From Burkholderiales bacterium (lineage in GTDB: Bacteria > Pseudomonadota > Gammaproteobacteria > Burkholderiales > JACQAP01), in NCBI GenBank assembly GCA_035548375.1, contig DASZTG010000021.1, positions 66,965 to 130,964 of the forward strand: DNA of 64,000 nt, given 5' to 3'. Below the pieces are notes generated by a model. That model saw only the letters and a list, made by a program, of their open reading frames with translations. It ran no database searches and was not told the DNA's origin. The translations under genes were made by a program, and so were the position numbers. The stretch's first letter is position 1. The number at the start of each line of letters is the position of its first letter. Below, in pieces: positions 2 through 39,262 of the stretch.

Positions 2-334
2 TATTCGAAGGCAGTCCCATGTGTCGGCAAGGCGGGGTCGTGCTCCTTCCATCATGTTCGCCTCGTGCATGGCTCGGCGCAGAACACGTCGGACAGGCCG
101 CGCCAGCTGCTGCTCTACGAAGCCACGGCGGCCGATGCGTGGCCGCTGGTCAACTTCAAGGATCTCGACGAATTCAACAGCCGCATGATCTGCGGCGAAC
201 CGACGCTGGAGCCCCGCACCGAGCACGTACCGATCCGCATGCCGTTGCCGCCCGCGCTGGCGCAGGGCTCGATCTACGAGAACCAGACGGCATTGCGCAA
301 CCGTTTCTTCGAGGTCAAGGCAGCGGCGACCTGA
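2..334 (+). CDS. 3' end of a phytanoyl-CoA dioxygenase (PhyH)-family Fe(II)/2-oxoglutarate oxygenase gene; 5' end lies outside the window
   Basis: The frame is open from base 2. The translation ..GSCSFHHVRLVHGSAQNTSDRPRQLLLYE.. resembles the C-terminal His/Arg region of PhyH-type oxygenases and the paralog at 15556..16416 (GEMSLHHVRIVHGSEPNRAHYRR). Confidence 0.55.
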   Translation, partial: YSKAVPCVGKAGSCSFHHVRLVHGSAQNTSDRPRQLLLYEATAADAWPLVNFKDLDEFNSRMICGEPTLEPRTEHVPIRMPLPPALAQGSIYENQTALRNRFFEVKAAAT

Positions 335-351
335 GAAGTTTGCATTTACCG

Positions 352-381
352 ACGGCGGGCGATCCCCGCCGTTTGTTTTTT
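352..381 (+). terminator. Rho-independent terminator after the partial PhyH gene
   Basis: Stem ACGGCGGG (352-359) pairs with CCCGCCGT (365-372) around a 5-nt loop, followed by TTGTTTTTT. Confidence 0.7.
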
Positions 382-1562: not shown

Positions 1563-1722
1563 ACATCCAACGCAGAGGCGCCGAGAGCGCAGAGTGCACA
1601 GAGGAAACGACTCAAAATGAGAAATGATCGCCAATCGCGGTTCAATCTCTACCAATTCTGCTTGTGTGCCCCCGAGTTCTCTGCGTTCTCCGTTTCTTCT
1701 CTGCGCCTCTGCGTTGGGTTTC
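1563..1722. repeat. Composite inverted-repeat intergenic element, copy A (CAGAG type)
   Basis: Left terminal CCAACGCAGAGGCGC (1567-1581) is the perfect reverse complement of GCGCCTCTGCGTTGG (1703-1717). The arms are made of CGCAGAG-like units around an AT-rich centre. It lies between the frmA stop and the fghA start. Confidence 0.8.
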
Positions 1723-1729
1723 GACTTAG

Positions 1730-2566
1730 ATGAAAACCATCAGCGAACACAGATGCTTCGAAGGCGTGCAGGGCTATTACTCGCACGCGTCGAAGGAGAT
1801 CGGCCTGGAGATGAAGTTCTCCGTGTTCGTCCCGCCGCAGGCGAAGGCCGGCAAGGCGCCGGTCCTGTATTACCTCGCGGGCCTGACGTGCACGGAGGAA
1901 ACGTTCGCGATCAAGGCGGGCGCGCAGCGCCTGGCGGCCGAACTCGGCCTGGTTCTGGTGGCGCCGGATACCAGCCCGCGCGGCGCGAACGTGCCGGGCG
2001 AAGCGGATTCATGGGATTTCGGCGTTGGCGCGGGCTTCTACGTCGACGCCACGCGCGAGCCCTGGTCGAAGCACTATCGCATGTACAGCTACGTGACCCG
2101 CGAGTTACCGGCGCTCGTTGCCGGGAAATTTCCGGTGGACACGGCAAGGCAAGGGATCTTCGGCCACTCGATGGGCGGGCACGGCGCGCTGGTCTGCGCA
2201 CTGCGCAACCCCGGCCAATACCAGTCGCTCTCGGCTTTCGCGCCGATCGCCGCCCCCATGCGATGCCCGTGGGGCAAGAAGGCGTTCAAGGGCTACCTCG
2301 GAGACGATCATGAAACCTGGAAGGAATACGACGCCAGCGATCTCATCAGGCGCATGTCGTTCGCGGGCCCGATCCTGATCGACCAGGGCCTCGCGGATAA
2401 ATTCCTGCCGGACCAGTTGTACCCCGAGGTCTTCGAGACCGCCTGCCGCGAATCGGACCAGCCGCTGGTCCTGAATCGCCGCGAGGGCTACGACCACGGC
2501 TATTTTTTCATTTCGACGTTCATGGAAAACCACCTTCGGCACCACGCCGACCAGCTCAAGAGGTAA
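1730..2566 (+). CDS. fghA: S-formylglutathione hydrolase (esterase D family)
   Basis: 278 aa. Motifs FSVFVPPQA, PVLYYLAGLTCTEE and the GHSMGGHGAL nucleophile elbow are typical of FghA/FrmB. It is the genomic partner of frmA. Confidence 0.93.
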   Translation: MKTISEHRCFEGVQGYYSHASKEIGLEMKFSVFVPPQAKAGKAPVLYYLAGLTCTEETFAIKAGAQRLAAELGLVLVAPDTSPRGANVPGEADSWDFGVGAGFYVDATREPWSKHYRMYSYVTRELPALVAGKFPVDTARQGIFGHSMGGHGALVCALRNPGQYQSLSAFAPIAAPMRCPWGKKAFKGYLGDDHETWKEYDASDLIRRMSFAGPILIDQGLADKFLPDQLYPEVFETACRESDQPLVLNRREGYDHGYFFISTFMENHLRHHADQLKR

Positions 2567-2569
2567 GCC

Positions 2570-3433
2570 ATGCAAAAACTACTCGTGTACCAATCGCTTT
2601 GGGCCATGGAACGCCGCCGTCCCGACGGCCTGGAATGGACCATGGACCAGAAGCTCGACATGATCCAGAAGGCGGGCTTCGACGGCTGCGGCGTGCGCTT
2701 CTTCGACTACAAGTACGCGAAGGAGATCACCGATTTCCTGCGCGCGCATGACATGACCTGGCAGGCCCAGTGCTATCCACAGAAAATAGACGACCTGAAG
2801 CCCATCCTCGAGCACGTGAAGGAACTCGGCGCGGACCACATCAACCTGCAGCCCGACGTGCGGCCTTATTCGATCCAGGAATGCATTCCCTACGTCGAGG
2901 GCTGGCGGCGGCTCGCGCACGACGCGAAGATCCCGGTGCACATCGAGACGCATCGCGATCGCATGACCACGGACCTGTTCTTCACGATGCAGCTGCTGGA
3001 CTGTTTCCCCGACCTGCGCCTGACGGGCGACCTGTCGCATTACGTGGTCGGCCGCGAATTCGCGTGGCCGATCAGCGAGGTCAACCATGGCTACATGCAT
3101 CGCATCCTCGACAACTGCTGGGGCTTCCACGGCCGCGTGGCGAGCCGCGAGCAAGTGCAGGTGCAGATCAGCTTCCCGCACCACAAGGACTGGCTCGACT
3201 TGTTCATGGGCTGGTGGGAGTACGGCCTGCGCAGCTGGCGCAAGCGCGCGCCGCGGGATGCGACGTTCACTTTCCTGTGCGAACTCGGGCCGAAGGAATA
3301 CGCGATGACCGGCCCGGACGGCTACGAGTTGTCGGATCGCTGGCAGGAAGCCCTGATGCTCACGGACATGATCAGGCAGTTATGGCAACGTCTTGAAAAC
3401 GAGGAAGCGCTGGGGTCGGCAAGGGCCGCGTGA
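2570..3433 (+). CDS. Probable xylose-isomerase-like TIM-barrel protein (sugar phosphate isomerase/epimerase family), tentative
   Basis: 287-aa ORF starting 4 nt after the fghA stop with good coding frame. The family call rests only on general resemblance of the N-terminal region (KLDMIQKAGFDGCGVRF) and length. Confidence 0.45.
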   Translation: MQKLLVYQSLWAMERRRPDGLEWTMDQKLDMIQKAGFDGCGVRFFDYKYAKEITDFLRAHDMTWQAQCYPQKIDDLKPILEHVKELGADHINLQPDVRPYSIQECIPYVEGWRRLAHDAKIPVHIETHRDRMTTDLFFTMQLLDCFPDLRLTGDLSHYVVGREFAWPISEVNHGYMHRILDNCWGFHGRVASREQVQVQISFPHHKDWLDLFMGWWEYGLRSWRKRAPRDATFTFLCELGPKEYAMTGPDGYELSDRWQEALMLTDMIRQLWQRLENEEALGSARAA

Positions 3434-3669
3434 ACGACGCCCCGGCGCCGGGGCGGGCAACGGGGGCTTTCCTAAAGGCCGGTAACTGGATAGAGTGGGT
3501 CGAAAGAACCGCCACCGGGCACGGTGATTCCTGGTTTTTCTTCCAGAAGAACCCGAGAGGCGCGATGCAAACACCATAATGATCACGGTGGGTCGCGTTC
3601 ATGCGTTTCAAGGGAGAAGTACCGCGCAATCCTGCGCGGCAGGGGATATCGCCTGGCCTGCGGCGCTGC

Positions 3670-4536
3670 ATGGCCGCGGCGGGGCTTGCCTGTATCGTGC
3701 AATGGGCGCCATGCGCCAACGCCGACCTCAACGGCTTGCGCTTCCGGGTCACGGCTGACGCCACCTACGACGACAACGTCTCGCGCGCCCGCGGCGACGA
3801 CAAGCTCCATGACACCTTCGAAACGCTGAACCTGGGCGCCAGCCTGCCCTGGCAATTGTCCGCAAGCTCCCGGCTGGTGCTGACGGGCAACGCCGGCGGC
3901 GAAAAATTCCAGCGTTACACCGGACTGGATCGTCTCTATGCAAACATCCAGGGCGAATTGCAGTACCGGGCGTCCGGCCAGTTCAGCACGCCGATCTGGG
4001 GAATATTCGTCAAGCAGGGCGAAGACTGGTACGACTCCGACCTGCGCGACGGCTATCGCACTTCCGCCGGGGTGTCGGTCAGGAAGCCGCTCACGGACAA
4101 GCTGTTCTTCTTCAGCGCGCTTGCCTACAACCAGCGCGACGGGCGCAGCAAGGTATTCGACACCAAGGAAGTGTCGCTGCGCGCGAACCTCGATTACGCG
4201 CTCACACGCAGGCAGACCCTCTACTTCGGCCTGGAGGGCCGCGACGGCGACATCGTCTCGACTGCCAGCGCGAAGCTCGCCTACTTCGACATCGCGGATG
4301 CCGTGATCCAGGACGATGTGTTCACCGACACGCAGCGCTTCTCCTACCGGCTCAAGGCCTATACCGGCATCGGAACGATCGGCTACAACTTCGCGATGGG
4401 CGAGCACGCGGCGCTCGACCTTGCCTATCGCATTGCCTATTCCCGCCCGCATGACCAGCCGCCCACCGCTGTCACGACGGATACGATCGACTACGTGGAC
4501 AACCAGGTCACGTTGTCGCTGCTGATCCGGTTCTGA
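3670..4536 (+). CDS. Predicted outer-membrane beta-barrel protein
   Basis: The internal Met gives signal peptide MAAAGLACIVQWAPCANA followed by D. About 12-14 alternating amphipathic strands are visible. The C-terminus LSLLIRF ends in the Phe typical of OMPs. The stop lies 13 nt before the lipoprotein gene. The ORF track starts at 3601, but those 23 residues are Arg-rich and non-signal-like. Confidence 0.6.
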   Translation: MAAAGLACIVQWAPCANADLNGLRFRVTADATYDDNVSRARGDDKLHDTFETLNLGASLPWQLSASSRLVLTGNAGGEKFQRYTGLDRLYANIQGELQYRASGQFSTPIWGIFVKQGEDWYDSDLRDGYRTSAGVSVRKPLTDKLFFFSALAYNQRDGRSKVFDTKEVSLRANLDYALTRRQTLYFGLEGRDGDIVSTASAKLAYFDIADAVIQDDVFTDTQRFSYRLKAYTGIGTIGYNFAMGEHAALDLAYRIAYSRPHDQPPTAVTTDTIDYVDNQVTLSLLIRF

Positions 4537-4549
4537 AAGGGCTGAAGCT

Positions 4550-7500
4550 ATGAACCGCGTCCTCCTGCTCGTGTTGACGACGTGCCTGCTCCTCGCCGGC
4601 TGTACGCAGGGCAATTCGGGCGACGAGGCGGCGACTGCGAGCGCGGACGCGCCTTCCGGCATCAATCGCTTCCTGCTGTTTCCGAACCCGATCGTCGATA
4701 CCGCCGGAAACTTCCAGACGGACACCGACGCCTACGCGCAGGCTTACTACGCCTCGGTGGATCCGAACGGCGAAAGGACGACGCTGGATTCCTGGAAGTC
4801 GAAAAACCAGTTCGGCCAGGGCGGCAGCGAGTTCGTCGCGGTATTCCGCGACGTGCGCGACCTGGGCTACGGCCGGCGCATGACGGGCCGTCGCAATGCC
4901 GACGGCAGCATCGCCTTCTACGTCGAGAACTACAACGTGGCCAACGCACCCGGCGGCTACTCGCAGGTCAACGTCGACGCCGCGGTCGCGCGCGATTCGA
5001 AGTGGCACGTGGGTACCAACGCCATCGAATGGAGTCCGGCCCAATGCACTGCGGCCGATCCCTCGAACTGCGACGCGACGGTGAAATACACGAAGTATTT
5101 CAACTTCGACCCTTCTTCCGGCCAGCGCCAGACCATGCTGAACCTCGACGGCCGCGGCCCGAAGGCGATGCCGGGCATCTGCGTGAACTGCCACGGCGGC
5201 CGACTCGACCCGCTCACGCCGCAGTCGACTTTCGCGCTGGTCGAGAACGCGGCATCGCGCAAGCGCGGCGACGTGCAAGCCAGGCTGCAGGGGTTCAACG
5301 TGGACAGCTTCGAGTGGTCGACGTTCGCCGGATTCAGGCGCGCGGACCAGGAAGCCGTCCTCAAGGCTTTCAACCAGTGGGTGCTGTGTTCCTATCCCGG
5401 CGGCGGAACGGTCTCCGGCACGTGGGGTAGTTGCACGCGGCCGTCCGCGGGCAGCAACGACTGGCAGGGTGCGGCGGCTCCCATGATCCAGAGCTGGTAC
5501 GGCGGCGCGGCCATGGCCAACGCGCAATTCTCCGACACCTATCTGCCGGCCGGCTGGACTGGCAACGCCTCGCTCTACCAGCAGGTCGTCGTGCCTTATT
5601 GCCGCACCTGCCATTTGTTGCGCGGCACCGCGAACCAGAGCGACATCGACTTCGACAGCGAGTCCAAGTTCAGCGGGTACGGCGCGCGCATCAAGGCGCA
5701 TGTGTTCGACCGCGGCAACATGCCGCTTGCCTTCCTGGTCTACCAGGGTTTCTGGAAGTCGAATGCGCCGTCCATCCTCGCGTCATACATCAATTCGCTC
5801 GCGATTTCCGGGTTGACGGCGACCGACGCCGGCGGCGCCCCGTTGCGCGCTGGCCGGCCGGTTGCGAATCCCGGCCCGGATCGCATGGTGCGCACGGGTG
5901 CGAACGCGAAGCTCTACGGCGGCGACAGCCTGTTCGCGAGCAGCTATAGCTGGACGCTGGATTCCGCGACGCCGGGTGCGACCATCAGTAATCCGAATTC
6001 CCCGACGGCGACGTTCTTCTCGAATTTTGCGGGCGCCTATACGGTGCATCTGACCGTGAGCAACCGCGGCGTCTCCGATTCGAAGGCCGTGACCATCACG
6101 GTCGACAACAATTTCCACGATCCGGCCACGATCAAGTTCGCGCACGTGAAATCCCTGTTGCAAAGCGCTTCGGCCACCTGCACCACCTGCCACCTGGTCC
6201 GTGCCGTGCCGCAGCCCGCCGCGACACCGCCGATCTGGTACACCGACTTCGATCGAAATTCCAGCGGAGGCGCGCCGGATGCCACCGACGACGCATGGCT
6301 CTACGAGGAAATAATGGGCCGCGTGAACCTGACCGAGCTGGCCGCCAGCCCGTTGCTCGGCAAGCCCGCGGGCAATCACCACAACGGCGCGACCCTGTTC
6401 AACCTCTCGGCCAACGCCGGCCTGACGAGCTATTCGATGCTGTACAACTGGATTCTGAACGGCGCGCCGGCAGGCGGCGTGGCGGCAAGCATCACGGCCA
6501 ATGCCGCCCCGGCGGTATCGTTTGTCGGCAGCCCACCCACGGCAACGATCCCGCTGAGCGGAACCGGCAGCATCGGCGCGACGACCTACGCCTGGACGAT
6601 TGCCCCGACACCGGTCCCGCCGGCTGGCGCGAGCCTCTCGACGCCGAACGCATCCACCGCCGTGCTCAATGTCCAGAACGTGGGCACCTACGTCGTGCAA
6701 CTGCTCGTCGGCAATGGAACGGAAAGCGACACCGCCACGCAACAGATCGTCGTGACCGAAACGCCATTGGCGTTCAGCCTTACTGTGGCCGGTCTGTCCG
6801 CGGGCAGCGTGGCAGTGCCGTTCAGCGGGGTGGGGCCGACAGGTACCATCAGTGTCACCACCTCCCAAAGTACCGGCAGTCCGTTGTCATGCAACTGGCA
6901 GGTGCTGCCGCCATCCTCCGGCGTCACGGTCGGGGCGAATTCGTGCGCCGGCGCGACGCTGAACGTAACGACGGCGGCGATAGGCAATAACTACACGTTA
7001 GAGCTGACCGAGCAAAACGTATCGCAGCCGCCGGTGACCGCGAGCCAGTCGTTCGTGGTGACGGCCGCGGCCGGATCCAGCCCGAGCGGCGCCAACTTCA
7101 CGCCGACTTCGGCCGCCATCGGCTTCACGATCAACAACAATCCCGGAAGCACGCCGACAGCCACCTCGGCCAGCCGACTGTTGACCGGCAGTGCTACCGG
7201 ACCAGGGACGCTGACCTACGCCTGGAGCGCGACGGCCGGATCGGCCGGGTGCTCGATTCCGGGCGGGGCGAGCACTTCGACCACCCGGACGCTGAGCTAC
7301 TCGGGCGTGGGGACGTGCAGTGTGACGCTGACGGTAAGCAACGGCATCCCGCCCGATGCCACCGTCAACCACACAGTGACGATAGCCTCGACCGTCGTCT
7401 TGTCCGACGTGGCCACCCTGCTGAACTCGGGTGCCGGCTGCACGTCTTGCCACAACGGTACGACGGCGACACCGTCCTGGATCAACGATTCCGGCCTCAA

Positions 7501-17813: not shown

Positions 17814-19985
17814 GTGGAAGCACGAGTGGGAGAGCGCAAGACCTACCGCATCGGCATCGACGTCGGCGGCACATTCACCAAGGCAGTCCTGATCGACAAC
17901 GCCGGCTTCGACGTGGTCGGTCGCTATTCCGTCATGACCACGCACAGCGACTCGCGCGGGGTCGCCGCCGGCGTCGTCGAAGTCTTTCGAAACGTGCTGG
18001 AAAAATCGGCCGTCGATCCGGCCGACGTCGTGTTCCTCGCGCATTCGACGACCCAGGCGACCAATGCGCTGCTCGAGGGCGACGTCGCCGAAGTCGGCGT
18101 CGTCGGCATGGCGAGCCGCGTCGAATCCGTGCTCGCGCGGGGACAAAGCAACGTCAAGGAGATCGAGCTGGCACCTGGACGCTTCCTGCGCCCTGGCCAC
18201 CGGTTCATCACCACCGACAAGCTGGAAGAGGCGCTGGTGCGCGAAACGCTTTCGGCCTTGCGAGATGAAGGCGCGCATGTCGTCGTGGCGAGCAGCGCGT
18301 TCAGCGTGGATGACCAGAGCGCCGAAGAGCTTGTGATCCGCGTCGCAGGCGAACTCGGCCTCGCGGTGACCGGCGGCCACGAAATCACGAAACTCTACGG
18401 CCTGACCACGCGCACGCGCACCGCCGTCATCAACGCCAGCATCCTGCCGAAGATGATCGGCACCGCCAACATGACCGAGGAGGCCGTACGCGAGGCCGGC
18501 ATCGGCGCGCCGCTGATGATCATGCGCGGCGACGGCGGCGTCATGGACGTGCAGGAGATGCGCAAGCGGCCAGTGGTTACCATGCTGTCAGGCCCGGCCG
18601 CCAGCGTCGCCGGCGCGCTCATGTACCTGCGTGTTTCCGACGGCATCTACTTCGAGGTCGGCGGCACCAGCACGAACATCGGTGTCATCCGCAACGGCCG
18701 GCCCACGATCAAGCATGCGCGCGTCGGCGGCCACGATACCTATGTGAATTCCCTCGACGTGCGCGTCATCGGCATCGCCGGCGGCAGCATGGTCCGCGTG
18801 CGCGGCAACGACATCCACGACGTCGGTCCGCGCAGCGCCCACATTGCCGGCCTGCACTACGCCGCGTTTGCGAAGCCCGAGGACATCGTCGATCCGAAGA
18901 TCGAATTGTTCTGTCCCAAAGAGGGCGATCCCGATGACTACCTCGCGATCCGTTGCGCCAACGGCGAGCGCTATGCGCTCACCAACACCTGTGCCGCCAA
19001 CGTCCTCGGCTACGCGAGGCCGGGCTGGCATGCGCACGGCAACGCCGAATCCGCGCGGCTCGCATTCGCGCCGCTCGCGCAGCGCATCGGCACGACGGTG
19101 GAAGAGGCGGCGCGACGCGTCCTGCAAAAGGCCGCCGCCAAGGTCACCGGCGTCGTGGACGACCTGATCGCGGAATACAAGCTCGATCGCGACCAGGCTG
19201 TGCTGGTCGGCGAAGGCGGGGGGGCGGCCTCGCTGATTCCGTTCGTCGCCGAGACCATGAAGCTCGACTTCAAGATTTCGCAGGACGCCGAGGTGATCTC
19301 GTCGATCGGCGTTGCGCTCGCGCTCGTGCGCGAGACCGTGGAGCGCGTGATCCCGAATCCGTCGCCCGAGGACCTGCAGCGCATCAAGCGCGAAGCCTTC
19401 GACGCCGTGGTCAAGCTGGGTGCCGCGCCCGAGAACGTCGAAGTCACGATAGAAGTCGATCCGCAGACCCAGCGCGTGCGGGCAACGGCGATGGGCGCCT
19501 CGGAAATGCGCTCGCAGGACATGCGCAAGCAGGTCAGCGAGGAAGAAGCCGCAGGCATCGCCGCGACGTCGATGGGTCTCGCGCCCGACACCGTCAAGCT
19601 GGCGGCGGCGACGGACGACGTACGCGTCTTCCAGGCCGAGGTCCAGGAAAAGAAGTGGAAGATTTTCACGAAGAAGCGCATGCCGGTGCGGGCCGTCGAC
19701 CGCGAAGGCGTCATCCGTATCCAGCGCAGCGATGGCGTGGTCGCGCAGGCGAGCGCGTCTGACGGCTTGCAGCAGCTGCGTGCGTTGTGGGAATCCGTGA
19801 CCATCTACAACGGCGACAGCGTGATCGCGCCCGACATGTTCGTCGTCGCCGGCAGGCGCATCGTCGACTTGTCCGGCGTGACCGCGCTCGACCAGGCCAT
19901 TGCCATCAGCCGCGGCGAACTGGAAGGCTTGCCGCCCGAGGCGCCGGTCGTGCTGATCAGCGTGCAGGGCGCTCGCGGCATATGA
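17814..19985 (+). CDS. Hydantoinase/oxoprolinase (HyuA-like, ASKHA fold) family protein
   Basis: 723 aa. YRIGIDVGGTFTKAVLID and a second GGTSTNIG phosphate-binding motif are typical of hydantoinase A-type ATPases. The start abuts the permease stop. Confidence 0.8.
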   Translation: MEARVGERKTYRIGIDVGGTFTKAVLIDNAGFDVVGRYSVMTTHSDSRGVAAGVVEVFRNVLEKSAVDPADVVFLAHSTTQATNALLEGDVAEVGVVGMASRVESVLARGQSNVKEIELAPGRFLRPGHRFITTDKLEEALVRETLSALRDEGAHVVVASSAFSVDDQSAEELVIRVAGELGLAVTGGHEITKLYGLTTRTRTAVINASILPKMIGTANMTEEAVREAGIGAPLMIMRGDGGVMDVQEMRKRPVVTMLSGPAASVAGALMYLRVSDGIYFEVGGTSTNIGVIRNGRPTIKHARVGGHDTYVNSLDVRVIGIAGGSMVRVRGNDIHDVGPRSAHIAGLHYAAFAKPEDIVDPKIELFCPKEGDPDDYLAIRCANGERYALTNTCAANVLGYARPGWHAHGNAESARLAFAPLAQRIGTTVEEAARRVLQKAAAKVTGVVDDLIAEYKLDRDQAVLVGEGGGAASLIPFVAETMKLDFKISQDAEVISSIGVALALVRETVERVIPNPSPEDLQRIKREAFDAVVKLGAAPENVEVTIEVDPQTQRVRATAMGASEMRSQDMRKQVSEEEAAGIAATSMGLAPDTVKLAAATDDVRVFQAEVQEKKWKIFTKKRMPVRAVDREGVIRIQRSDGVVAQASASDGLQQLRALWESVTIYNGDSVIAPDMFVVAGRRIVDLSGVTALDQAIAISRGELEGLPPEAPVVLISVQGARGI

Positions 19986-20641
19986 ACCCGGACCCGCTGG
20001 CGCTTGGCTTGGGACAACTTCGCCAGGATCCGCAGTACCCGCGCATTCCCGTCGCCAGGCACACGCAGTTGGTCGAGGCTGCACTGGCGGACGGCCGCGT
20101 GCTCGCTGCCGAAGTTGCCGCGAACCATGGCAACGATCCCGAAGCGATTGCCGTGCAGTGCGCGATCCCGGTCGATCGCAGTGAGCGGGACGCGGGCTAC
20201 GGCAGCGTCGTCGTTCACGCCGAGTATGTGGAGAGACCGCCCCGGATCACGCTGTACGTTCGATCGATTGCCGCGCTGGCGCGTCGCAGCGTGGGGACGC
20301 AGACAGCCGTCGACCAGGCCGCGTTGGAACGCGTGTTCCTGGCTCACGAGCTCTACCATCATTTCGATTGCGCGCGCGGCGAGCATCGGCTCGCGCGCCG
20401 CCATCGCGTGGACATCGTCCGCATCGGCGCCTGGCGTTGGACGTCGGGCCTCGCCAGCCTCGCGGAAATCGCGGCCGGGTCTTTCGCGCGCGAATTGCTC
20501 GGATTGCCGTTTCATCCAGTCATTCTGGATTTCCTGTTGGTCCAAACCATGAACCACGGAGAACATTCTTTTTTATACCCCCTTGAGGGGTGCGGAGATT
20601 ACGGAGCAGAAAGAAGTGAAGGGCAAGGCAATGGATTTTGA
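19982..20641 (+). CDS. Hypothetical protein with HExxH motif (possible metallopeptidase-like fold)
   Basis: Its ATG overlaps the hydantoinase stop (ATGA). HELYH lies at 20345-20359. The last ~30 codons and the stop codon fall inside repeat copy B. Confidence 0.5.
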   Translation: MNPDPLALGLGQLRQDPQYPRIPVARHTQLVEAALADGRVLAAEVAANHGNDPEAIAVQCAIPVDRSERDAGYGSVVVHAEYVERPPRITLYVRSIAALARRSVGTQTAVDQAALERVFLAHELYHHFDCARGEHRLARRHRVDIVRIGAWRWTSGLASLAEIAAGSFARELLGLPFHPVILDFLLVQTMNHGEHSFLYPLEGCGDYGAERSEGQGNGF

Positions 20642-20737
20642 GTTCATCTGGCGGGACGAGACATGCGGAGACCCTGATGGGGCCGCGTCCCGACTATCCA
20701 TTGCTTTTCTCCGTGATCTCCGTGCCCTCCGTGGTTC
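20551..20737. repeat. Composite inverted-repeat intergenic element, copy B (CGGAG type, with 28-nt module)
   Basis: GAACCACGGAG (20551-20561) is the reverse complement of CTCCGTGGTTC (20727-20737). The module ATTCTTTTTTATACCCCCTTGAGGGGTG lies at 20565-20592. Confidence 0.75.
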
Positions 20738-20755
20738 AAGATCGAGACGAATCAA

Positions 20756-21859
20756 ATGAAATTCAAAGCCGCCGTGCTGAACAAGGTCAACGAGCCGATG
20801 ACCCTGGACACGCTGGACATGGCGCCGCTCGCGCCGTCCGACGTGCTCGTGAAGGTCAAGGCCAGCGGCCTGTGCCACACCGACCTCGAGGTGATCCAGG
20901 GTTCGCTGGCTTATCCGCTGCCGATCGTGCTGGGCCACGAAGGTGCGGGCATCGTCGAAGCCGTCGGCAGCGAGGTCACGCAGGTCAAGCCCGGCGACCA
21001 CGTCATCTGCTCGTGGAACCCGCACTGCGGCCACTGTTTCTATTGCGAGCGTGACCTGCCTATCCTGTGCGAGCCGTTCGCGCGCAACCAGCCGAAGGGT
21101 TTCCTGCTCGATGGGCGCTCGCGCATGAAACGCGATGGACAGCAGGTGCACCACTATTCCGTCACCTCTACGCATGCCGAATACACGGTCATCCCCGAGT
21201 CCGGCGCGATTGCCGTGCCTCGCGAGTTGCCGTTCGACCTTGCTTGCATCATCGGCTGCGGCGTCATGACCGGCGTGGGCGCCGTCGTGCGCAAGGCGAA
21301 GGTCGAAGCCGGGGCCAGCGTGGCGGTCATCGGCTGCGGCGCGGTGGGGCTGAACGCCGTCCAGGGCGCCAAGCTCGTCGGCGCCGGCAAAATCATCGCG
21401 GTGGATGTCAGCAAGGACAGGCTGGCTCGCGCGGTCACGTTCGGCGCGACGCATACCGTCGATGCGTCGGCGGCGGACGCCGTGGAGCAGGTCAAGGCGC
21501 TGACCGGCGGCAGGGGGGCGGATTACGTCATCGAGGCGGCGGGCAACAAGAACGCTTTCCGGATGACCGTGGAGGCCGTGCGGCCCGGCGGGCAGGTGGT
21601 GTGGATGGGCAAGATCAATGTGAACGAGGATGTGAGCTTTCGCTGGGGCGCGCTGATGGGCGAAAAGCGCATCGTGCGCTCCAGTTACGGCGAGGCGCGG
21701 CCGCGTCGGGATTTTCCGTGGATCGCGAACGAGTACCTGCAAGGCCGGCTCAAGCTCGACGAGCTCGTCACGAACCGCATCAAGCTGGAGCAAATCAACG
21801 ACGGCTTCGCTGCCCTTGCGCGCGGCGAGGGCATTCGTACCGTCGTCATGTTCGACTAA
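20756..21859 (+). CDS. Zn-dependent alcohol dehydrogenase family oxidoreductase
   Basis: 367 aa. Motifs GLCHTDLEV, GHEGAGIVEAVG and GCGAVGL (Rossmann) are present. Confidence 0.9.
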   Translation: MKFKAAVLNKVNEPMTLDTLDMAPLAPSDVLVKVKASGLCHTDLEVIQGSLAYPLPIVLGHEGAGIVEAVGSEVTQVKPGDHVICSWNPHCGHCFYCERDLPILCEPFARNQPKGFLLDGRSRMKRDGQQVHHYSVTSTHAEYTVIPESGAIAVPRELPFDLACIIGCGVMTGVGAVVRKAKVEAGASVAVIGCGAVGLNAVQGAKLVGAGKIIAVDVSKDRLARAVTFGATHTVDASAADAVEQVKALTGGRGADYVIEAAGNKNAFRMTVEAVRPGGQVVWMGKINVNEDVSFRWGALMGEKRIVRSSYGEARPRRDFPWIANEYLQGRLKLDELVTNRIKLEQINDGFAALARGEGIRTVVMFD

Positions 21860-21872
21860 GGCCTCGTCCCTC

Positions 21873-22047
21873 CATCCAACGCAAAGGCGCAAAGGACGCA
21901 AAGAACGCAAAAGTAACGAAAGAAAAAGAGCATGAGCGTGCGAATCGACGGTGATAAGGATCTCCCGCCGCTGGAGAATCGACATCTACCCCGTGCATTC
22001 CTTGCTTTTGCTTTTCTTCGCGTCCTTTGCGCCTTTGCGTTGGGTAT
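21873..22047. repeat. Composite inverted-repeat intergenic element, copy C (CAAAG type)
   Basis: The first 15 nt of CCAACGCAAAGGCGCAAAGGACGC occupy 21876-21890. Their perfect complement is 22029-22043, and complementarity runs to 24 nt in all. Confidence 0.8.
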
Positions 22048-22053
22048 AGACAG

Positions 22054-23103
22054 ATGAATAGATTCAACCACCCGCCCCTGGCAGCAGGCCACATCGACTC
22101 GGAGCACCGCTTCGAGGACATGGGCGACATCGAACTGGAGTCCGGCGAAATCCTGCAGGGCTATCGCCAGTCCTATGTCACGCACGGCAAGTTGAATCGC
22201 GACAAGTCGAACGCCATCCTCCTTTGCATCTCGCTGACCGGAAACCATCACCGGCTGGATTTCCTGATCGGACCGGGCAAGGCACTGGATCCGTCGCGTT
22301 ACTTCATCATTGCCGCCGATCCGATCTCGAACGGGCTCTCGTCGTCCCCCTCCAACAGCGGGCGGCAGCCGGGCATGCGCTTTCCGCAATTCACCATTCG
22401 CGACATGGTGGAATTGCAATACCGCCTGCTGACGCGCCGCTTCGGCATTCCGCGCCTGCATGCGGTGGTCGGCGCTTCCATGGGCGGCATGCAGGCCCTG
22501 CAATGGGCAGTGAGCCACCGTTCATACGCGCGTGCATGCGTGGCGATGACACCGATGGCGAAGACTTCCCCCTGGGCCGTGCTGGTGACGCAGACTGCAA
22601 GGTCCTGTTTGATGGCTGACGCAAACTGGACGAGCGAGGGCTTTCGCGCGCCGCCCGAACGCGGGTGGCGCGCTTATACGGGGCTCATGACAGCGCTGTT
22701 GAGCCGCACACCCGCGGCCCTGGCGGAATTCCTGCCGGACAGCGCCGCGGCACATTTGTGGTTCGAGAAAATTCACGCGCAGAATCGCGCCAACGGATTC
22801 GATGCACACGACTATCTCTACCAATCCTGGGCATACGAAGCGCACGACGTCGGCATGAGTCCCGGCTTCAACGGTGATACCGCCGCGGCGCTGGCGTCGA
22901 TCGATGCCCGGACGCTGGTGCTGGCTCCCCCGCTCGACCTGTTCAATCCCGCGGAGGCCGCACGCGATGCCGCCGCAAAGATCCCCGGCGCGCAATTCGT
23001 GGAGATCCCGTCGGCTCAGGGCCACCAGGCGGCGACCAGCACCAAACCGGAGGATGCGGCTTTCCTGAACCGCGCGATCGGAGAATTCCTTTCGCGCGGG
23101 TGA
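22054..23103 (+). CDS. Homoserine O-acetyltransferase (MetX)-family alpha/beta hydrolase
   Basis: Motifs NAILLCISLTGNHH and GASMGGMQALQWA (GxSxG) are present at a MetX-like length. The start is taken at ATG 22054, because the ORF-track start 22027 lies inside repeat C. Confidence 0.8.
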   Translation: MNRFNHPPLAAGHIDSEHRFEDMGDIELESGEILQGYRQSYVTHGKLNRDKSNAILLCISLTGNHHRLDFLIGPGKALDPSRYFIIAADPISNGLSSSPSNSGRQPGMRFPQFTIRDMVELQYRLLTRRFGIPRLHAVVGASMGGMQALQWAVSHRSYARACVAMTPMAKTSPWAVLVTQTARSCLMADANWTSEGFRAPPERGWRAYTGLMTALLSRTPAALAEFLPDSAAAHLWFEKIHAQNRANGFDAHDYLYQSWAYEAHDVGMSPGFNGDTAAALASIDARTLVLAPPLDLFNPAEAARDAAAKIPGAQFVEIPSAQGHQAATSTKPEDAAFLNRAIGEFLSRG

Positions 23104-23180
23104 GGCGAGAGGGGTGAGGCGTGAGGGGAAAGCTATAATTCACGCCTAACGCCTTTTTCCTCACCCCTCACTCCTCACCG
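23103..23180. repeat. Miniature imperfect hairpin element, copy D (GTGAGG type)
   Basis: GGTGAGGCGTGAGGGGAAAG opposes CTTTTTCCTCACCCCTCACTCCTCACC. The loop contains TATAAT (23134-23139) and ATTCAC. It lies directly after the MetX-like stop codon. Confidence 0.45.
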
Positions 23181-23196
23181 TTCCGAAGGAACCCCA

Positions 23197-23532
23197 ATGA
23201 TCGTCGACCATCGCACCTACAACGTCAAAATCGGCAAGCTCGGCGAATTTCTCAAGCTCTACGAGGCCGAATGCCTGCCGTTGCAACTGAAGCACCTCGG
23301 CCACTGCGTCGGCTGGTATGTCTCCAACGAGATCGGCCCGCTGTCGCAAGTGGTGCACATGTGGGCCTACCAGGACCTTGCCGACCGCGATGCGCGGCGC
23401 GCGAAAATGGCCGCCGAGCCCGGCTTTGCAAAATACCTCGAGAAGGCGGGGCCGCTGCTGGCCAGCATGGAGAACAAGATCCTGAAGCCGGCACCCTTCT
23501 TCAAGGCGCCCGAGCTCAAGGGGCAAGCCTGA
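23197..23532 (+). CDS. NIPSNAP family protein
   Basis: 111 aa. MIVDHRTYNVKIGKLGEFLKLYE...VVHMWAYQDLADRDARR shows the typical NIPSNAP pattern. Confidence 0.8.
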   Translation: MIVDHRTYNVKIGKLGEFLKLYEAECLPLQLKHLGHCVGWYVSNEIGPLSQVVHMWAYQDLADRDARRAKMAAEPGFAKYLEKAGPLLASMENKILKPAPFFKAPELKGQA

Positions 23533-30274: not shown

Positions 30275-30482
30275 TTTCACCACGGAGAACACGGAGAGAC
30301 ACGAAGAAAGGCCAAAGACAATACTGGAGATATTCTTCGCTGACGAAGTTTCCGGTTCCAAAATATTCGCGTCCAACGTCATATTCGCCAATTTTTATTC
30401 CGATCCTTCGTTTTTCTCTGTGTATCTCCGTGTTCTCCGTGTGCCCCTCAAGGGGGCATTAAAGTGAATCTCCGTGGTGAAA
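30275..30482. repeat. Composite inverted-repeat intergenic element, copy E (CGGAG type, 28-nt module in opposite orientation)
   Basis: TTTCACCACGGAG (30275-30287) opposes CTCCGTGGTGAAA (30470-30482). The module TGCCCCTCAAGGGGGCATTAAAGTGAAT lies at 30442-30469. Confidence 0.8.
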
Positions 30483-34017: not shown

Positions 34018-34158
34018 TTACCACGGAGGACACGGAGTAAACACAGAAAAGCATTACGAGAAACGGAGCAGGTGAATCGGGTGTCCAAAAATTTCGACCG
34101 CGTCGACCTGTTCCGTCCTTCTCTTCTCGATGGATGTTCTCCGTGTTCTCCGTGGTTC
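34018..34158. repeat. Composite inverted-repeat intergenic element, copy F (CGGAG type)
   Basis: CCACGGAGGACACGGAG (34021-34037) opposes CTCCGTGTTCTCCGTGG (34139-34155), with one mismatch. Confidence 0.75.
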
Positions 34159-35714: not shown

Positions 35715-37262
35715 ATGAATCCGTTCACGCGCCGACGCTTCCTGCAGGCATCGGGAGCAGCCGCCCTGACCGCGCCGCTCGCCAGTTCCCTGATCCTCAC
35801 GAACGAGGCCCATGCGCAGTCCGGCAAGGTCCTCACGATTGCCTACAACGTCGCGCTGCCGTCATGGGATCCGACCACCGGGCCGTCGGCGGTGAATCCG
35901 ACCATCCAGTCGCTCTACAAGGCGGTGTTCGATTCCTACATCGACCAGAATCCCGACCTGTCCTTCAAGCCGGGCCTGCTGACGAAGTGGGGCTGGAACA
36001 AGGACAAGACCAAGGTCGAGATGGAAGTGCGCAAGGATGCGTTCTGGCACGACGGCACGCCCGTCACGCCCGAGGACGTGGTGTGGTCGCTGGAGCGCGC
36101 GGGCGACCCCAAGAGCGGCAACCCGATCCAGTTCGTCTGGGGCAAGATCGGCAACTTCAAGATCGACGGCCACAAGGTCACGGCCGACGTGAAGGAATTC
36201 GAGCCGGCGCTGTTCAAGTGGATGGCTTTCCTCACGGGCTACGTGCTGCCGAAGAAAGCCTACACCGCGGCGGGAGCAGAAGGATGGGAAGCGAAGCCCG
36301 TCGGCAGCGGCCCGTACATGGTCGAGAAGTTCGAGCGCAACGCCTACATCCGCCTCAAGGCGTTCCCGAAATACTGGGGACCCAAGCCTGCCTTCGACAC
36401 GGTCGTGTTCAAGCTCGTTGGCGACGCGTCCGCGCGCGTGGCGGAAATCGAAAGCGGCTCGGCCGACCTGACGCTGGAAGTGCCCTACGAGGAATTCGAC
36501 CGGTTGAAAGCGAAGAGCGGCCTGGCCGGCGTAGCGCACCCGGTGTCCGACATCGGCATGATCTTCATCACCAACATCGAGCCCATGCTCGATGCCAACG
36601 TTCGCCAGGCCATGGTGCAATCCATCGACAAGAAGGCGATCGTCGACAAGCTGTTGCATGGCTACGGCACCGTCATCGATACGCTGGAAGCCCCGCAGTA
36701 CGCAGCCTTCGATGCGTCGATCAAGACCAAGTACGACCCGGAAGCCGCGAAGCAACTGCTCGCCAAGTCTGGATTTTCCACGTCGAAGCCGGTGAAGTTC
36801 ACGATCCAGACCACGCGCGGCTTCAAGCCCAAGGACTACGAAATGATCCAGGCCGTGGTCGGCATGTGGCGCAAGGTCGGCATCGAGGCGAACGTCGAGA
36901 CTTATGAAATTGCCAAGCACTTCGAGCTGCGCATGCGCCACGGCCTCGCTCCCGCAGCGTTCTACAACTGGGGCAATTCCATCGGCGATCCGTCGACCTC
37001 CACGGGGTTCGCCATGTTCAGCCACTCGCCGCACTCGGCGTGGAAGACCGACGACGTCGACGCGAAGATCGGCCCGCTGTGGGGCGAGAAGGACGAGGCA
37101 AAGCGCATCGCCGGCTGGAAGGCCGCCGATCGCTACATCGCGGACAACGCCTACGTAATCCCGCTGCTGCAGTATTCGCAGCCCGTCGTGTACAAAAGCA
37201 GCATCAAGTTCACGCCCCACGTCGCCGGGTTCATCCTGCCGCAGAACATCAGGCCTGCTTAG
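35715..37262 (+). CDS. ABC transporter substrate-binding protein, family 5 (peptide/nickel/opine type), paralog 1
   Basis: 515 aa. Tat-type signal RRRFLQASGAAALTAPLA. The body is family-5 SBP-like (GSGPYMVEKFERNAYIRLKAFPKYWG). Confidence 0.9.
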   Translation: MNPFTRRRFLQASGAAALTAPLASSLILTNEAHAQSGKVLTIAYNVALPSWDPTTGPSAVNPTIQSLYKAVFDSYIDQNPDLSFKPGLLTKWGWNKDKTKVEMEVRKDAFWHDGTPVTPEDVVWSLERAGDPKSGNPIQFVWGKIGNFKIDGHKVTADVKEFEPALFKWMAFLTGYVLPKKAYTAAGAEGWEAKPVGSGPYMVEKFERNAYIRLKAFPKYWGPKPAFDTVVFKLVGDASARVAEIESGSADLTLEVPYEEFDRLKAKSGLAGVAHPVSDIGMIFITNIEPMLDANVRQAMVQSIDKKAIVDKLLHGYGTVIDTLEAPQYAAFDASIKTKYDPEAAKQLLAKSGFSTSKPVKFTIQTTRGFKPKDYEMIQAVVGMWRKVGIEANVETYEIAKHFELRMRHGLAPAAFYNWGNSIGDPSTSTGFAMFSHSPHSAWKTDDVDAKIGPLWGEKDEAKRIAGWKAADRYIADNAYVIPLLQYSQPVVYKSSIKFTPHVAGFILPQNIRPA

Positions 37263-37267
37263 GGATT

Positions 37268-37514
37268 ACATCCAACGCAAAGGCGCAAAGAACGCAAAGA
37301 ACGCAAAGAACGCAAAGGACGCAAAGGATTCACTTCAATACTCCCTTGCGGGGTACGCAAAGAAGGCCAGGACGGTATTTGCATTCGGCCGATGGCGCGA
37401 GGGCTTGATGTGCCAGCGTGCTCGACGATGATCGCCCATGTCAGATTCCTGAAGGATATTTCGGTTTCGGGTTTCCTTTGCGATCTTTGCGTTCTTTGCG
37501 CCTTTGCGTTGGGT
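37268..37514. repeat. Composite inverted-repeat intergenic element, copy G (CAAAG type, with 28-nt module)
   Basis: CCAACGCAAAGGCGC (37271-37285) opposes GCGCCTTTGCGTTGG (37497-37511). Five tandem 9-mers CGCAAAGRA span 37283-37327. The module ATTCACTTCAATACTCCCTTGCGGGGTA lies at 37327-37354. Confidence 0.85.
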
Positions 37515-37534
37515 TGAAATGAGGAGGATCTAGA

Positions 37535-39067
37535 TTGTCGGACGAATTCTCGAGAAGGCGCTTTCTGCAAGCATCCGGCGCGACGGCGCTGTCAGCGTTG
37601 CTGTACGGGCCATATGCGCGCGCGCAATCCGGCAAGACGCTGACCATCGCGTACAACACGTCGCTGCCTTCGCTCGATCCGACCAGCAGCGCGAAGACAT
37701 CGAGCCCCGCGGTGCAGTCGATCTTCAAGGCGATTTTCGATCCCTACGTCGACCAGAATCCGGATCTTGGTTTCAAGCCCGGCGCGCTGACCAAATGGGG
37801 CTGGAACAAGGACAAGAGCGCGATCGAGCTGACGTTGCGCCGCGGCATGCTCTGGCATGACGGCACGCCGGTCACCATCGACGACCTGGTGTGGTCGCTG
37901 CAACGCGCGGGCGACGAGAAGAACGGCAACCCGATGCAGTTCATGTGGCGCAAGCTCGGCGGCTTCAAGGTGAGCGGCGACACCGTCAGCGTCGAGGTGA
38001 AGGAATTCGAGCCGGCATTGCTCAAGTGGCTGGGTTTCCTCACGGCCTACATCCTTCCTAAGAACGCATTCACCGCTGCCGGCGGGGCCGCGGGCTGGGA
38101 CGCGAAGCCAATCGGCAGCGGCCCCTACATGGTCGAGAAGTTCGAGCGCGATGCCTATATCCGGCTCAAGGCATTCCCGAAATACTGGGGGCCGAAGCCG
38201 GCGTTCGAGACAGTCGTCTTCAAGTTCGTGCCGGATGCCGCGAGTCGCGTTGCCGAAATCGAGAGCGGCGCGGCCGACATGACGCTCGAAGTGCCGTACG
38301 AGGAATACGACCGGCTCATTGCGAAGCCGGGGCTCGCTGGCGCGGCATATCCGATGTCCGACATCGCCATCCTGTTCATCACCGATCGCGAGCCCATGCT
38401 GGATGCGAACGTGAGGCTTGCCGCGGCGCACGCCATCGACAAGAAGGCCATCGTCGACAAGCTCATGCGCGGCTACGGTCGTCCGCTCGACACGCTGCAG
38501 GCGCCGGACTACGCCGCCTACGATACATCGATCAAGGTGAAATACGATCCCGAGCTGGCGAAAACCCTGCTCGCGAAATCCGGTTATTCGCCGTCGAGGC
38601 CGGTCAAGTTCACCGTGCAGACCACGCGCGGCTACAAGCCCAAGGACTACGAATCCGTGGCGGCCATCGTGGCGATGTGGAAGAAAGTCGGCATCGAGGC
38701 AGACATCGAGGTGCTCGACGTCGCCAAGCACTTCGACCTGCAGTTGCGCCACGCGCTGGCGCCCGCGTCGTTCTACAACTGGGGCAATTCGATCGGCGAT
38801 CCATCGACCTCGACGGGCTTCGCGTTCATCGGCCCGTTCGCGGTATGGCGCTCGCCGGACGTCGAGAAGATGGTCGGACCGCTGTTCGTGGAGCGCGACG
38901 AGGCAAAACGCATCGGCGGCTACAAGGACGTCGATCGTTATCTCGCCGAACAGGGCTATGTGATCCCGTTGTTCCAGTACTACCAGCCGGTCGTGCACAA
39001 GAAGAGCATTACCTTCACGCCGCACGGCGCCGGCACCATCGCTCCTCAGTCGATAAGGCCGGTCTAA
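37535..39067 (+). CDS. ABC transporter substrate-binding protein, family 5, paralog 2
   Basis: 510 aa. TTG start after GAGGAGG. Tat-type signal RRRFLQASGATALSAL. It is collinear with paralog 1 and roughly two-thirds identical by eye. Confidence 0.9.
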   Translation: MSDEFSRRRFLQASGATALSALLYGPYARAQSGKTLTIAYNTSLPSLDPTSSAKTSSPAVQSIFKAIFDPYVDQNPDLGFKPGALTKWGWNKDKSAIELTLRRGMLWHDGTPVTIDDLVWSLQRAGDEKNGNPMQFMWRKLGGFKVSGDTVSVEVKEFEPALLKWLGFLTAYILPKNAFTAAGGAAGWDAKPIGSGPYMVEKFERDAYIRLKAFPKYWGPKPAFETVVFKFVPDAASRVAEIESGAADMTLEVPYEEYDRLIAKPGLAGAAYPMSDIAILFITDREPMLDANVRLAAAHAIDKKAIVDKLMRGYGRPLDTLQAPDYAAYDTSIKVKYDPELAKTLLAKSGYSPSRPVKFTVQTTRGYKPKDYESVAAIVAMWKKVGIEADIEVLDVAKHFDLQLRHALAPASFYNWGNSIGDPSTSTGFAFIGPFAVWRSPDVEKMVGPLFVERDEAKRIGGYKDVDRYLAEQGYVIPLFQYYQPVVHKKSITFTPHGAGTIAPQSIRPV

Positions 39068-39072
39068 GGACT

Positions 39073-39254
39073 ACACCCAACGCAAAGACGCAAAGGACGC
39101 AAAGGAAAGCAAGAACAAGAAAAAAGATCGGGGAAGATAACTGCTGGCCAGGCGATGGTCGCTGAGGGTTTCGCCTGAAGTCGCCAAAGATTGAATTTCC
39201 TCGTTCCCGCTTTCTTTGCGACCTTTGCGTTCTTTGCGTCTTTGCGTTGGGTGG
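39073..39254. repeat. Composite inverted-repeat intergenic element, copy H (CAAAG type)
   Basis: CACCCAACGCAAAGACGCAAAG (39074-39095) has a perfect complement at the right end, ..CTTTGCGTCTTTGCGTTGGGTG (39232-39253). Confidence 0.8.
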
Positions 39255-39262
39255 AGACAGCT

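Follow-up and report, generated by a model that had tools for sequence, protein, structure and literature searches.

In many bacteria, tandem repeats of heptamers are over-represented in the DNA between genes, and we know of no explanation for them that has gained acceptance in decades. Cyanobacterial heptamers, the STRR repeats, are said to have been described by Mazel et al. in 1990. Xanthomonas genomes contain about 185 arrays of GGGAATC, with 2–26 units, 89–93% of them intergenic and mostly between same-strand genes (Rehm et al., 2015, PLoS One, PMC4692102). In each genome 70–75 pairs of these arrays are convergent and capable of forming a stem-loop or cruciform. Their position and their single or paired type are usually kept between two species while the length varies, and the units were read by the authors as G-quadruplex formers (PMC4692102). 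Direct heptamers of the sequence TAACTGA lie just upstream of start codons and are common to Beggiatoaceae, Cyanobacteria and Bacteroidetes; in the Beggiatoa genome 169 sets are direct and one is indirect (MacGregor, 2015, PMC4679880). Here we describe eight intergenic palindromes, elements A–H, of one shared architecture in a 64-kb stretch of DNA of 64% G+C, called the window below, from an uncultured Burkholderiales bacterium (contig DASZTG010000021.1 of assembly GCA_035548375.1). Two of them, B and C, flank a gene for a Zn-dependent alcohol dehydrogenase (Zn-ADH, or ADH). Within each copy both arms carry the same unit variant, and the variant differs between copies and between relatives at the same site. 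This matching we are inclined to ascribe to copying between the arms at the level of DNA.

The left arm of each element is an array of tandem 7-nt units and the right arm an array of their reverse complements, with 2–8 units per arm as counted by Tandem Repeats Finder (TRF) and a chain search. The period is 7 nt in element D and 8–9 nt elsewhere, with spacers of about 0–3 nt between heptamers, and the centre between the arms is 30–170 nt long and has no conservation. The consensus of the unit across the lineage is CRCRRAG, and that of element D is GGTGARR. Units at the outer ends are almost perfect; toward the centre they degrade into runs that are rich in purines in the left arm and in pyrimidines in the right, a detail missing from the first-pass annotation. 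The eight copies listed there are all present, with the positions and unit types given in Table 1, and B and C do bracket one Zn-ADH gene, as had been stated.

These elements belong with the poorly characterised paired convergent heptamer arrays of Xanthomonas. As in those pairs, the tandem 7-nt units number at least two, all eight copies are intergenic with inverted arms at the distance just given, and position and paired state are kept while length varies. The last is seen at sites B–F in L123, L124, L128 and L132–L161; these L-numbers label loci related to the ADH locus that were gathered by exact-protein look-ups and one metagenome scan. Unlike GGGAATC, the units CGCAAAG, CGCAGAG and CACGGAG have no GGG run, and only D (GGTGAGG/GGGG) is G-rich. 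The longer period with its variable spacers (D again excepted) and the occurrence of several variants per genome are further differences. Arm covariation and variant switching lay outside the scope of the Xanthomonas paper (PMC4692102). In the literature searched, no report was found of either of these, or of arm-to-arm copying, in heptamer-array elements. With the TAACTGA repeats the elements have in common intergenic tandem heptamers near start codons and a unit found in distant phyla with no known transfer mechanism; unlike those repeats, which are nearly all direct, their arrays occur in this lineage obligately as inverted pairs. REP, BIME and REPIN sequences are abundant intergenic palindromic repeats inside operons, for which a role as mRNA stabilisers has been proposed. 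A REPIN consists of two inverted REPs evolving as a unit, and its REP arm is one conserved imperfect palindrome of 20–40 nt tied to the RAYT transposase (Y1). The present elements resemble them as intergenic palindromes in operons with paired arms that evolve as a unit, and differ in that the arms are arrays of tandem 7-nt units without a conserved full-length sequence. Literature on intrastrand triplexes was set aside because it concerns a different motif. The array kind itself is known but unexplained, and the novelty lies in the CRCRRAG unit, the several variants and the strict self-matching.

The earlier observation that each copy carries the complement of its own variant holds for all eight copies in the window. 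If right arms were dealt at random to left arms, the probability of matching all eight types would be 3!·3!/8! = 0.0009. Complementarity of the arms extends to the spacers that separate the units, as with g / ga / aa in C. Covariation was assessed in 30 elements of this Burkholderiales lineage, with the outermost 31 nt of both arms aligned without gaps. In this alignment 93.9% of arm cells pair, compared to 80.8 ± 0.8% with shuffled partners, and 19 of the 31 pairs vary on both sides. Compensatory cells number 139, compared to 51.6 ± 7.3 in shuffles, none of 500 of which reached 139, so that the covariation has statistical support. Pairing falls to 33–52% when the partner is slid by 1–3 columns. 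Within the unit, variation is confined to positions 2, 4 and 5, each of which alternates between A-U and G-C; positions 1, 3, 6 and 7 (C1, C3, A6, G7) are invariant. The variants are joined by single purine transitions (CGCAAAG–CGCAGAG–CACAGAG–CACGGAG–CACGAAG), and the 1–3-nt spacers and the 4-nt flanks co-vary between arms as well, the spacers remaining complementary although they are not the same in different species. Among about 33 elements of this lineage none has mixed arms; in each, both arms share the majority variant.

Every copy folds from its outer ends into a single long hairpin on both strands, with z-scores of the RNA minimum free energy (MFE) from -4.4 to -10.7 (A, -7.1; C, -9.0; H, -10.7), and element C folded as DNA gives z = -9.8. 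Hairpin potential is therefore kept in every copy, as the first-pass annotation had supposed. A classical structured RNA would leave such a record, that is, a transcript hairpin under purifying selection in which independent compensatory substitutions pass through G·U intermediates. The strong covariation is in its favor, and so are the conserved positions inside operons and the nature of the variant differences, which are all purine transitions (AU to GC or the reverse) with a few G·U intermediates. Of the transition mismatches in the arms, 60 are compatible with G·U on the sense strand and 41 on the antisense strand, and the sense strand has the lower MFE in 22 of 34 elements, but these biases are not significant (p = 0.073 and 0.12), and both strands fold about equally. 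The strand asymmetry is a hint at best, and not the clear asymmetry expected of a constraint on RNA only. Rfam 15 gave zero matches at the gathering score over the whole window, and relaxed thresholds over G–H gave matches at chance level only, such as a plant miRNA at 29.7 bits compared to a cut-off of 184. The loop, or centre, is wholly unconserved, between sister lineages the 3–8 units of each arm switch together, and an insertion of 39 nt mirrored in both arms, described below, could not arise by point compensation. Independent compensation in a structured RNA is for these reasons an unlikely account of the arms.

The closest homologues of the ADH are named Burkholderiales, Casimicrobiaceae and Usitatibacter, and in relatives with 77–89% ADH identity the neighborhood of the gene is syntenic, so that the same intergenic sites can be compared. 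The variants found at sites B–F are listed in Table 1, in which L121 stands for the window locus at site C. The variants are scattered over the ADH tree, and sisters carry different ones (L121 and L123; L124 and L135). Whole arrays change type at once. When all centres were compared with one another by BLAST, a single strong match emerged, between the orthologous elements at site B of L132 and L134; the sole other match, of 24 nt at 87.5% (E = 6e-4), was between non-orthologous elements, at site B of L136 and site C of L133. The first-pass annotation had offered as an alternative that subfamilies are each copied as a whole palindrome. This does not suffice as an explanation, because variants at the same site differ between close relatives while the arms stay matched, because the variants are interspersed on the tree, and because centres are not shared. 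Judged from the sequences, the copying of ready-made palindromes cannot be the whole story, as the variant turns over at a fixed site.

A related possibility is that the elements resemble the small transposable elements with inverted repeats called MITEs, with subfamilies of palindromes transposed or acquired horizontally, and that relatives differ at one site because elements were lost from intergenic hot spots and inserted there anew. Eight copies in 64 kb, their patchy presence and absence at orthologous sites and the different terminal flanks at site C in different lineages would agree with this. Two hallmarks of a MITE were not found: apart from the 24-nt match, non-orthologous centres share no internal sequence, and a comparison of filled with empty sites gave no target-site duplications. 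No transposase is evident near the elements. L121, L123 and L136 have identical flanks at site C (cccaa...ttgggtgta) and differing variants. Elements G and H were born of a segmental duplication together with their gene, not of transposition: a tandem duplication of about 1.8 kb (35715–39255) included an SBP_bac_5 gene and the element downstream of it, and G and H are the resulting paralogues. We consider re-insertion of mobile palindromes improbable as the source of the variants. A reading of B–ADH–C as a composite transposon was rejected, since ADH synteny is kept in relatives without B (L135), without C (L134) and without both (L129, L127). A megablast search of 12 kb against plasmids gave a single weak match, to a Burkholderia ADH.

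On balance, we favor the view that the arms match because each copy evolves in place as a unit by arm-to-arm exchange of DNA, with perhaps some selection on the stem as well. A change in one unit would spread along its own array by slippage or unequal exchange, and would be carried across the hairpin to the opposite arm by gene conversion, recombination or a switch of template in replication, as in quasi-palindrome correction. The outcome would be concerted evolution in which slippage evens the units within an arm and exchange across the hairpin evens the two arms. Arm-to-arm gene conversion keeps the arms of Y-chromosome palindromes and plastid inverted repeats near-identical, and the segment between them can flip. 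In Escherichia coli, quasi-palindromes are corrected by template switching in replication, which moves several changes, including insertions, at once. The elements resemble the large palindromes in their near-identical inverted arms, in a centre that can flip and in the transfer of an insertion. They differ in scale, which is tens of base pairs and not kilobases, and in having internally repetitive arms, so that slippage would add a second homogenising process. For the present elements this mechanism is the one we infer.

Three observations suggest that DNA-level exchange explains the matching better than independent compensatory mutation does. At site C of L133 both arms contain a nested module of 39 nt, mirrored in position, and the 62-nt stretch of arm that was aligned has a single mismatch (A·A); in L124, L132 and L136 the same module is in one arm only. 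The centre of element B in the sister loci L132 and L134 aligns only when one copy is reversed (140 of 189 positions identical; z = 24, compared to 1 in the forward orientation), and was thus presumably flipped by recombination between the arms, which, as inverted repeats, flank the flipped segment. The third is the lack of a clear G·U strand bias. Unit counts are unequal between arms in some elements (4 and 8 in L135, 6 and 4 in G), indicating that slippage also acts within each arm.

Several points weigh against this explanation. There is one clear centre inversion and one mirrored insertion; among the elements compared, only that of L132/L134 was a convincing inversion. Both come from metagenome assemblies, in which inverted repeats can in principle be mis-joined, and the L132/L134 flip retains the caveat that a 35-nt inverted repeat could have been misassembled. 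The terminal 4-nt flanks at site C vary between lineages (CCAA, TTGC, TCAC, AGGA), and some of the elements taken as orthologous may be replacements or re-insertions and not descendants. The weak sense-strand excess of G·U-compatible mismatches (60:41) leans slightly toward a constraint on RNA. Finally, neither pairing nor copying alone explains the invariant positions C1, C3, A6 and G7.

The invariant positions would be expected if a DNA- or RNA-binding protein read CRCRRAG units spaced 8–9 nt apart, the inverted layout serving a symmetric oligomer. Four of seven positions are constant across the 30 elements, related heptamers recur across phyla, and binding of S1, Csp or CsrA type has been proposed for the TAACTGA heptamers (MacGregor, 2015, PMC4679880). 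But there are several variants per genome, and a single protein would not demand that the two arms of a copy match. The spacers co-vary too, which site recognition does not predict, and nothing in the window links a candidate protein to the elements. It is very doubtful that binding-site arrays account for these elements.

The first-pass annotation had seen in the compensatory pattern what a selected structure would be expected to show. The covariation is real. The step from it to selection is unproven, and copying of the arms at the DNA level is indicated; the arms apparently copy from each other, and covariation is not proof here of a selected RNA structure. With less confidence, we suggest that selection also keeps the long stem. 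Copying between arms accounts for their matching, and it leaves the persistence of arrays at the same sites and the four invariant positions unaccounted for. The stem is probably under selection, since the arms outlast both the centres and the neighboring coding DNA: the arms of B are identical in the three species represented by L121, L123 and L124 while the centres are unalignable, and between G and H the arms are 88–93% identical, the genes 75% and the centres about 50%. By analogy with what has been proposed for REP/BIME elements, the most plausible role that we can infer would be that of a stable stem-loop in a polycistronic transcript, acting as a processing site or as a barrier to exonucleases. 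A scan for promoters and terminators over 20300–23400, around B–D, found nothing above shuffles, so the elements seem to be neither intrinsic terminators nor obvious promoters. The same scan, with nothing promoter-like in its range, and the unconserved centres give no indication of an invertible promoter.

Table 1. Elements and associated features. Positions are those of the window unless a locus is named.
Feature	Position	Strand	Description
Element A	1565–1719		Left arm 1565–1604, CGCAGAG units; right arm 1679–1719, CTCTGCG units
Element B	20551–20737		Left arm 20551–20606, CACGGAG units; right arm 20709–20737, 3 × CTCCGTG
Nested module in B	20562–20592	+	Small hairpin (core CCCCCTTGAGGGG) between units 1 and 2 of the left arm
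Zn-ADH gene	20756–21859	+	Flanked by B and C; not repeat DNA
Element C	21874–22045		Left arm 21874–21922, CGCAAAG units decaying inward; right arm 22005–22045, CTTTGCG units
Element D	23099–23179		Short, 7-nt period; GGTGAGG units 23099–23128, CCTCACC units 23159–23179
Element E	30277–30480		CACGGAG arms; nested module in right arm
Element F	34018–34158		CACGGAG arms; flanked by a dienelactone-hydrolase gene and an MFS gene of the minus strand
Element G	37270–37514		Six CGCAAAG units and four CTTTGCG units; nested module 37327–37355
Element H	39075–39252		CGCAAAG arms; 3′ of the second SBP_bac_5 gene
Site B (5′ of ADH)			CACGGAG in eight loci; CACAGAG in L128, L133; CACGAAG in L137; empty in L135, L129, L127
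Site C (3′ of ADH)			CGCAAAG in the window (L121), L128, L132; CGCAGAG in L124, L147; CACAGAG in L123, L133, L135, L136, L137; only a right-end remnant in L148; empty in L129, L131, L146, L138
Site D			GGTGAGG in the window; GGTGAAG-like in L124; GGTGAAA-like in L128; GTGAC in L123
Site E			CACGGAG in the window; CACGAAG on both arms in L123
Site F			CACGGAG in the window; CGCAGAG/CACAAAG units in L128
Nested module of about 39 nt	L124 11130–11170		
Nested module of about 39 nt	L132 ~2500–2545		
Nested module of about 39 nt	L136 ~330–365		
Nested module of about 39 nt	L133 2634–2672 and 2790–2828		
GxxExxY-associated locus	L118 4645–5115		
GxxExxY-associated locus	L103 ~3400–4000		
GxxExxY-associated locus	L040 ~4290–4800		
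GxxExxY-associated locus	L017 4058–4950		
GxxExxY-associated locus	L024 ~3700–4300		
GxxExxY-associated locus	L016 ~5700–6260		

Seven of the eight elements in the window lie between co-directional genes and one between convergent genes. A, C, E, G and H start about 7–18 nt past the upstream stop codon, B and D overlap the end of the upstream gene, and where the next start codon is clear the elements end about 9–40 nt before it. Element A is placed between a class-III-like Zn-ADH gene (445–1557) and an esterase gene (1730–2566). Element C extends from 15 nt after the ADH stop to 9 nt before the next start codon, and its arms are 97% complementary. Element G separates the two tandemly duplicated SBP_bac_5 genes. 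The left arm of B is broken by a nested module, and its right end is 18 nt 5′ of the ADH start. An open reading frame of 219 amino acids upstream of the ADH gene (19982–20641) reads into the left arm and centre of B, so that its C-terminus is encoded by the repeat. In L135, which has no B, the corresponding frame stops at the ADH start, apparently overlapping the gene. Two closely adjoining genes thus appear to have been separated by element B. Upstream of the ADH gene in L139 (1–125) there are at least 13 CTTCACC/TCCTTCAC units in a single long direct array and not in a pair of arrays, although the contig ends there.

Small modules are nested within some of the arrays. One of 28–31 nt (consensus ATTCACTTYAATRCCCCCTTGAGGGGYA) is found in the left arms of B and G and, reversed, in the right arm of E (30442–30469), placed exactly between two heptamer units. 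The orthologues of element B in L123, L124, L132 and L134 lack the module, which identifies it as an insertion, and it resembles a very small mobile sequence with arrays as its target. The second module, of about 39 nt, consists of TACCCT, a small hairpin and GGAGTACCCTCTTAGGA / GGAGTACCCTYTTAGGA, and its insertion point is always after the sixth base of a unit. From locus to locus the hairpin within it varies in a compensatory way (ACGTGC..GCACGT and CGC..GCG). One hairpin also encloses another: in L193 (373–560) the centre of a CGCGAAG/CGCAAAG element contains a CACGGAG hairpin element.

Outside this lineage, at least 120 loci with three CGCAAAG units were found in a scan of 185,579 genomes, and the matches listed include Acidobacteriota, Chloroflexota, Cyanobacteria, Planctomycetota, Verrucomicrobiota, Myxococcota, Bacteroidota and several Proteobacteria. 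The raw abundance of the triple unit was discarded as evidence, because composition-matched control heptamers were equally common in viral contigs (CGACAAG × 3, at least 120; CCGAAAG × 3, 55), mostly as 9-nt coding repeats. Close pairing of plus and minus arrays is specific to CGCAAAG, with about 25 cases among 120 listed genome loci and 3 among 80 listed viral loci, and none for either control. Among the listed loci, about 45–48 distinct elements have an exact inverted CTTTGCG partner 10–420 nt downstream, and the layout with the pyrimidine arm first is much rarer (13 compared to 63). Mixed arms occur in about 15–17 of about 65 paired CGCAAAG arrays across phyla, the partner being a variant with one or two substitutions (CTTGGCG, CCTTGCG, CTTCGCG and CTCTGCG among others), and a few partners are unrelated heptamers (CTCAGTC in L083, CTAACCA in L011). 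The first-pass annotation had asked whether mixed-type arms ever occur within one copy. They do in this wider sample, so that strict arm matching is a property of this Burkholderiales lineage and not of the whole class. In L095 (about 3050–3420), from a metagenome-assembled genome of Anaerolineaceae, three successive short elements have CGCAAAG on the left and CTCTGCG on the right, a combination that is G·U-compatible on one strand only.

Genes of the GxxExxY / PD-(D/E)XK_3 type (TIGR04256, PF13366) lie inside or adjoin array hairpins in 6 of 120 listed cross-phylum loci. The GxxExxY gene of L118 forms the centre of the element, and a left arm, duplicated in direct orientation, flanks that of L103. 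None was found in the window or in the related Burkholderiales loci. These small genes between or beside arrays, together with the presence of CGCAAAG arrays in many phyla and in viral contigs, count in favor of mobile, MITE-like palindromes. It is conceivable, if improbable, that the arrays are self-homogenising DNA elements found across phyla that serve as landing sites for the small nested hairpin modules and as handles of short homology by which small selfish GxxExxY / PD-(D/E)XK_3 nuclease genes are captured, duplicated and moved, with CGCAAAG shared through horizontal spread and not through convergence.

Returning to exchange between the arms, the ADH locus and its relatives amount to a natural experiment, in which the same intergenic site in about 20 related genomes keeps its hairpin while the unit changes on both arms together. 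The explanation predicts that centres would flip back and forth, that engineered mismatches between the arms would be corrected and, with the stem also under selection, that the transcripts would be processed by RNase III. Covariation is the usual signature of a selected RNA structure, and the elements of this lineage indicate that it can be produced, or strongly assisted, by copying at the DNA level between inverted arms, which calls for caution when structured RNAs are sought by covariation in genomes rich in repeats.

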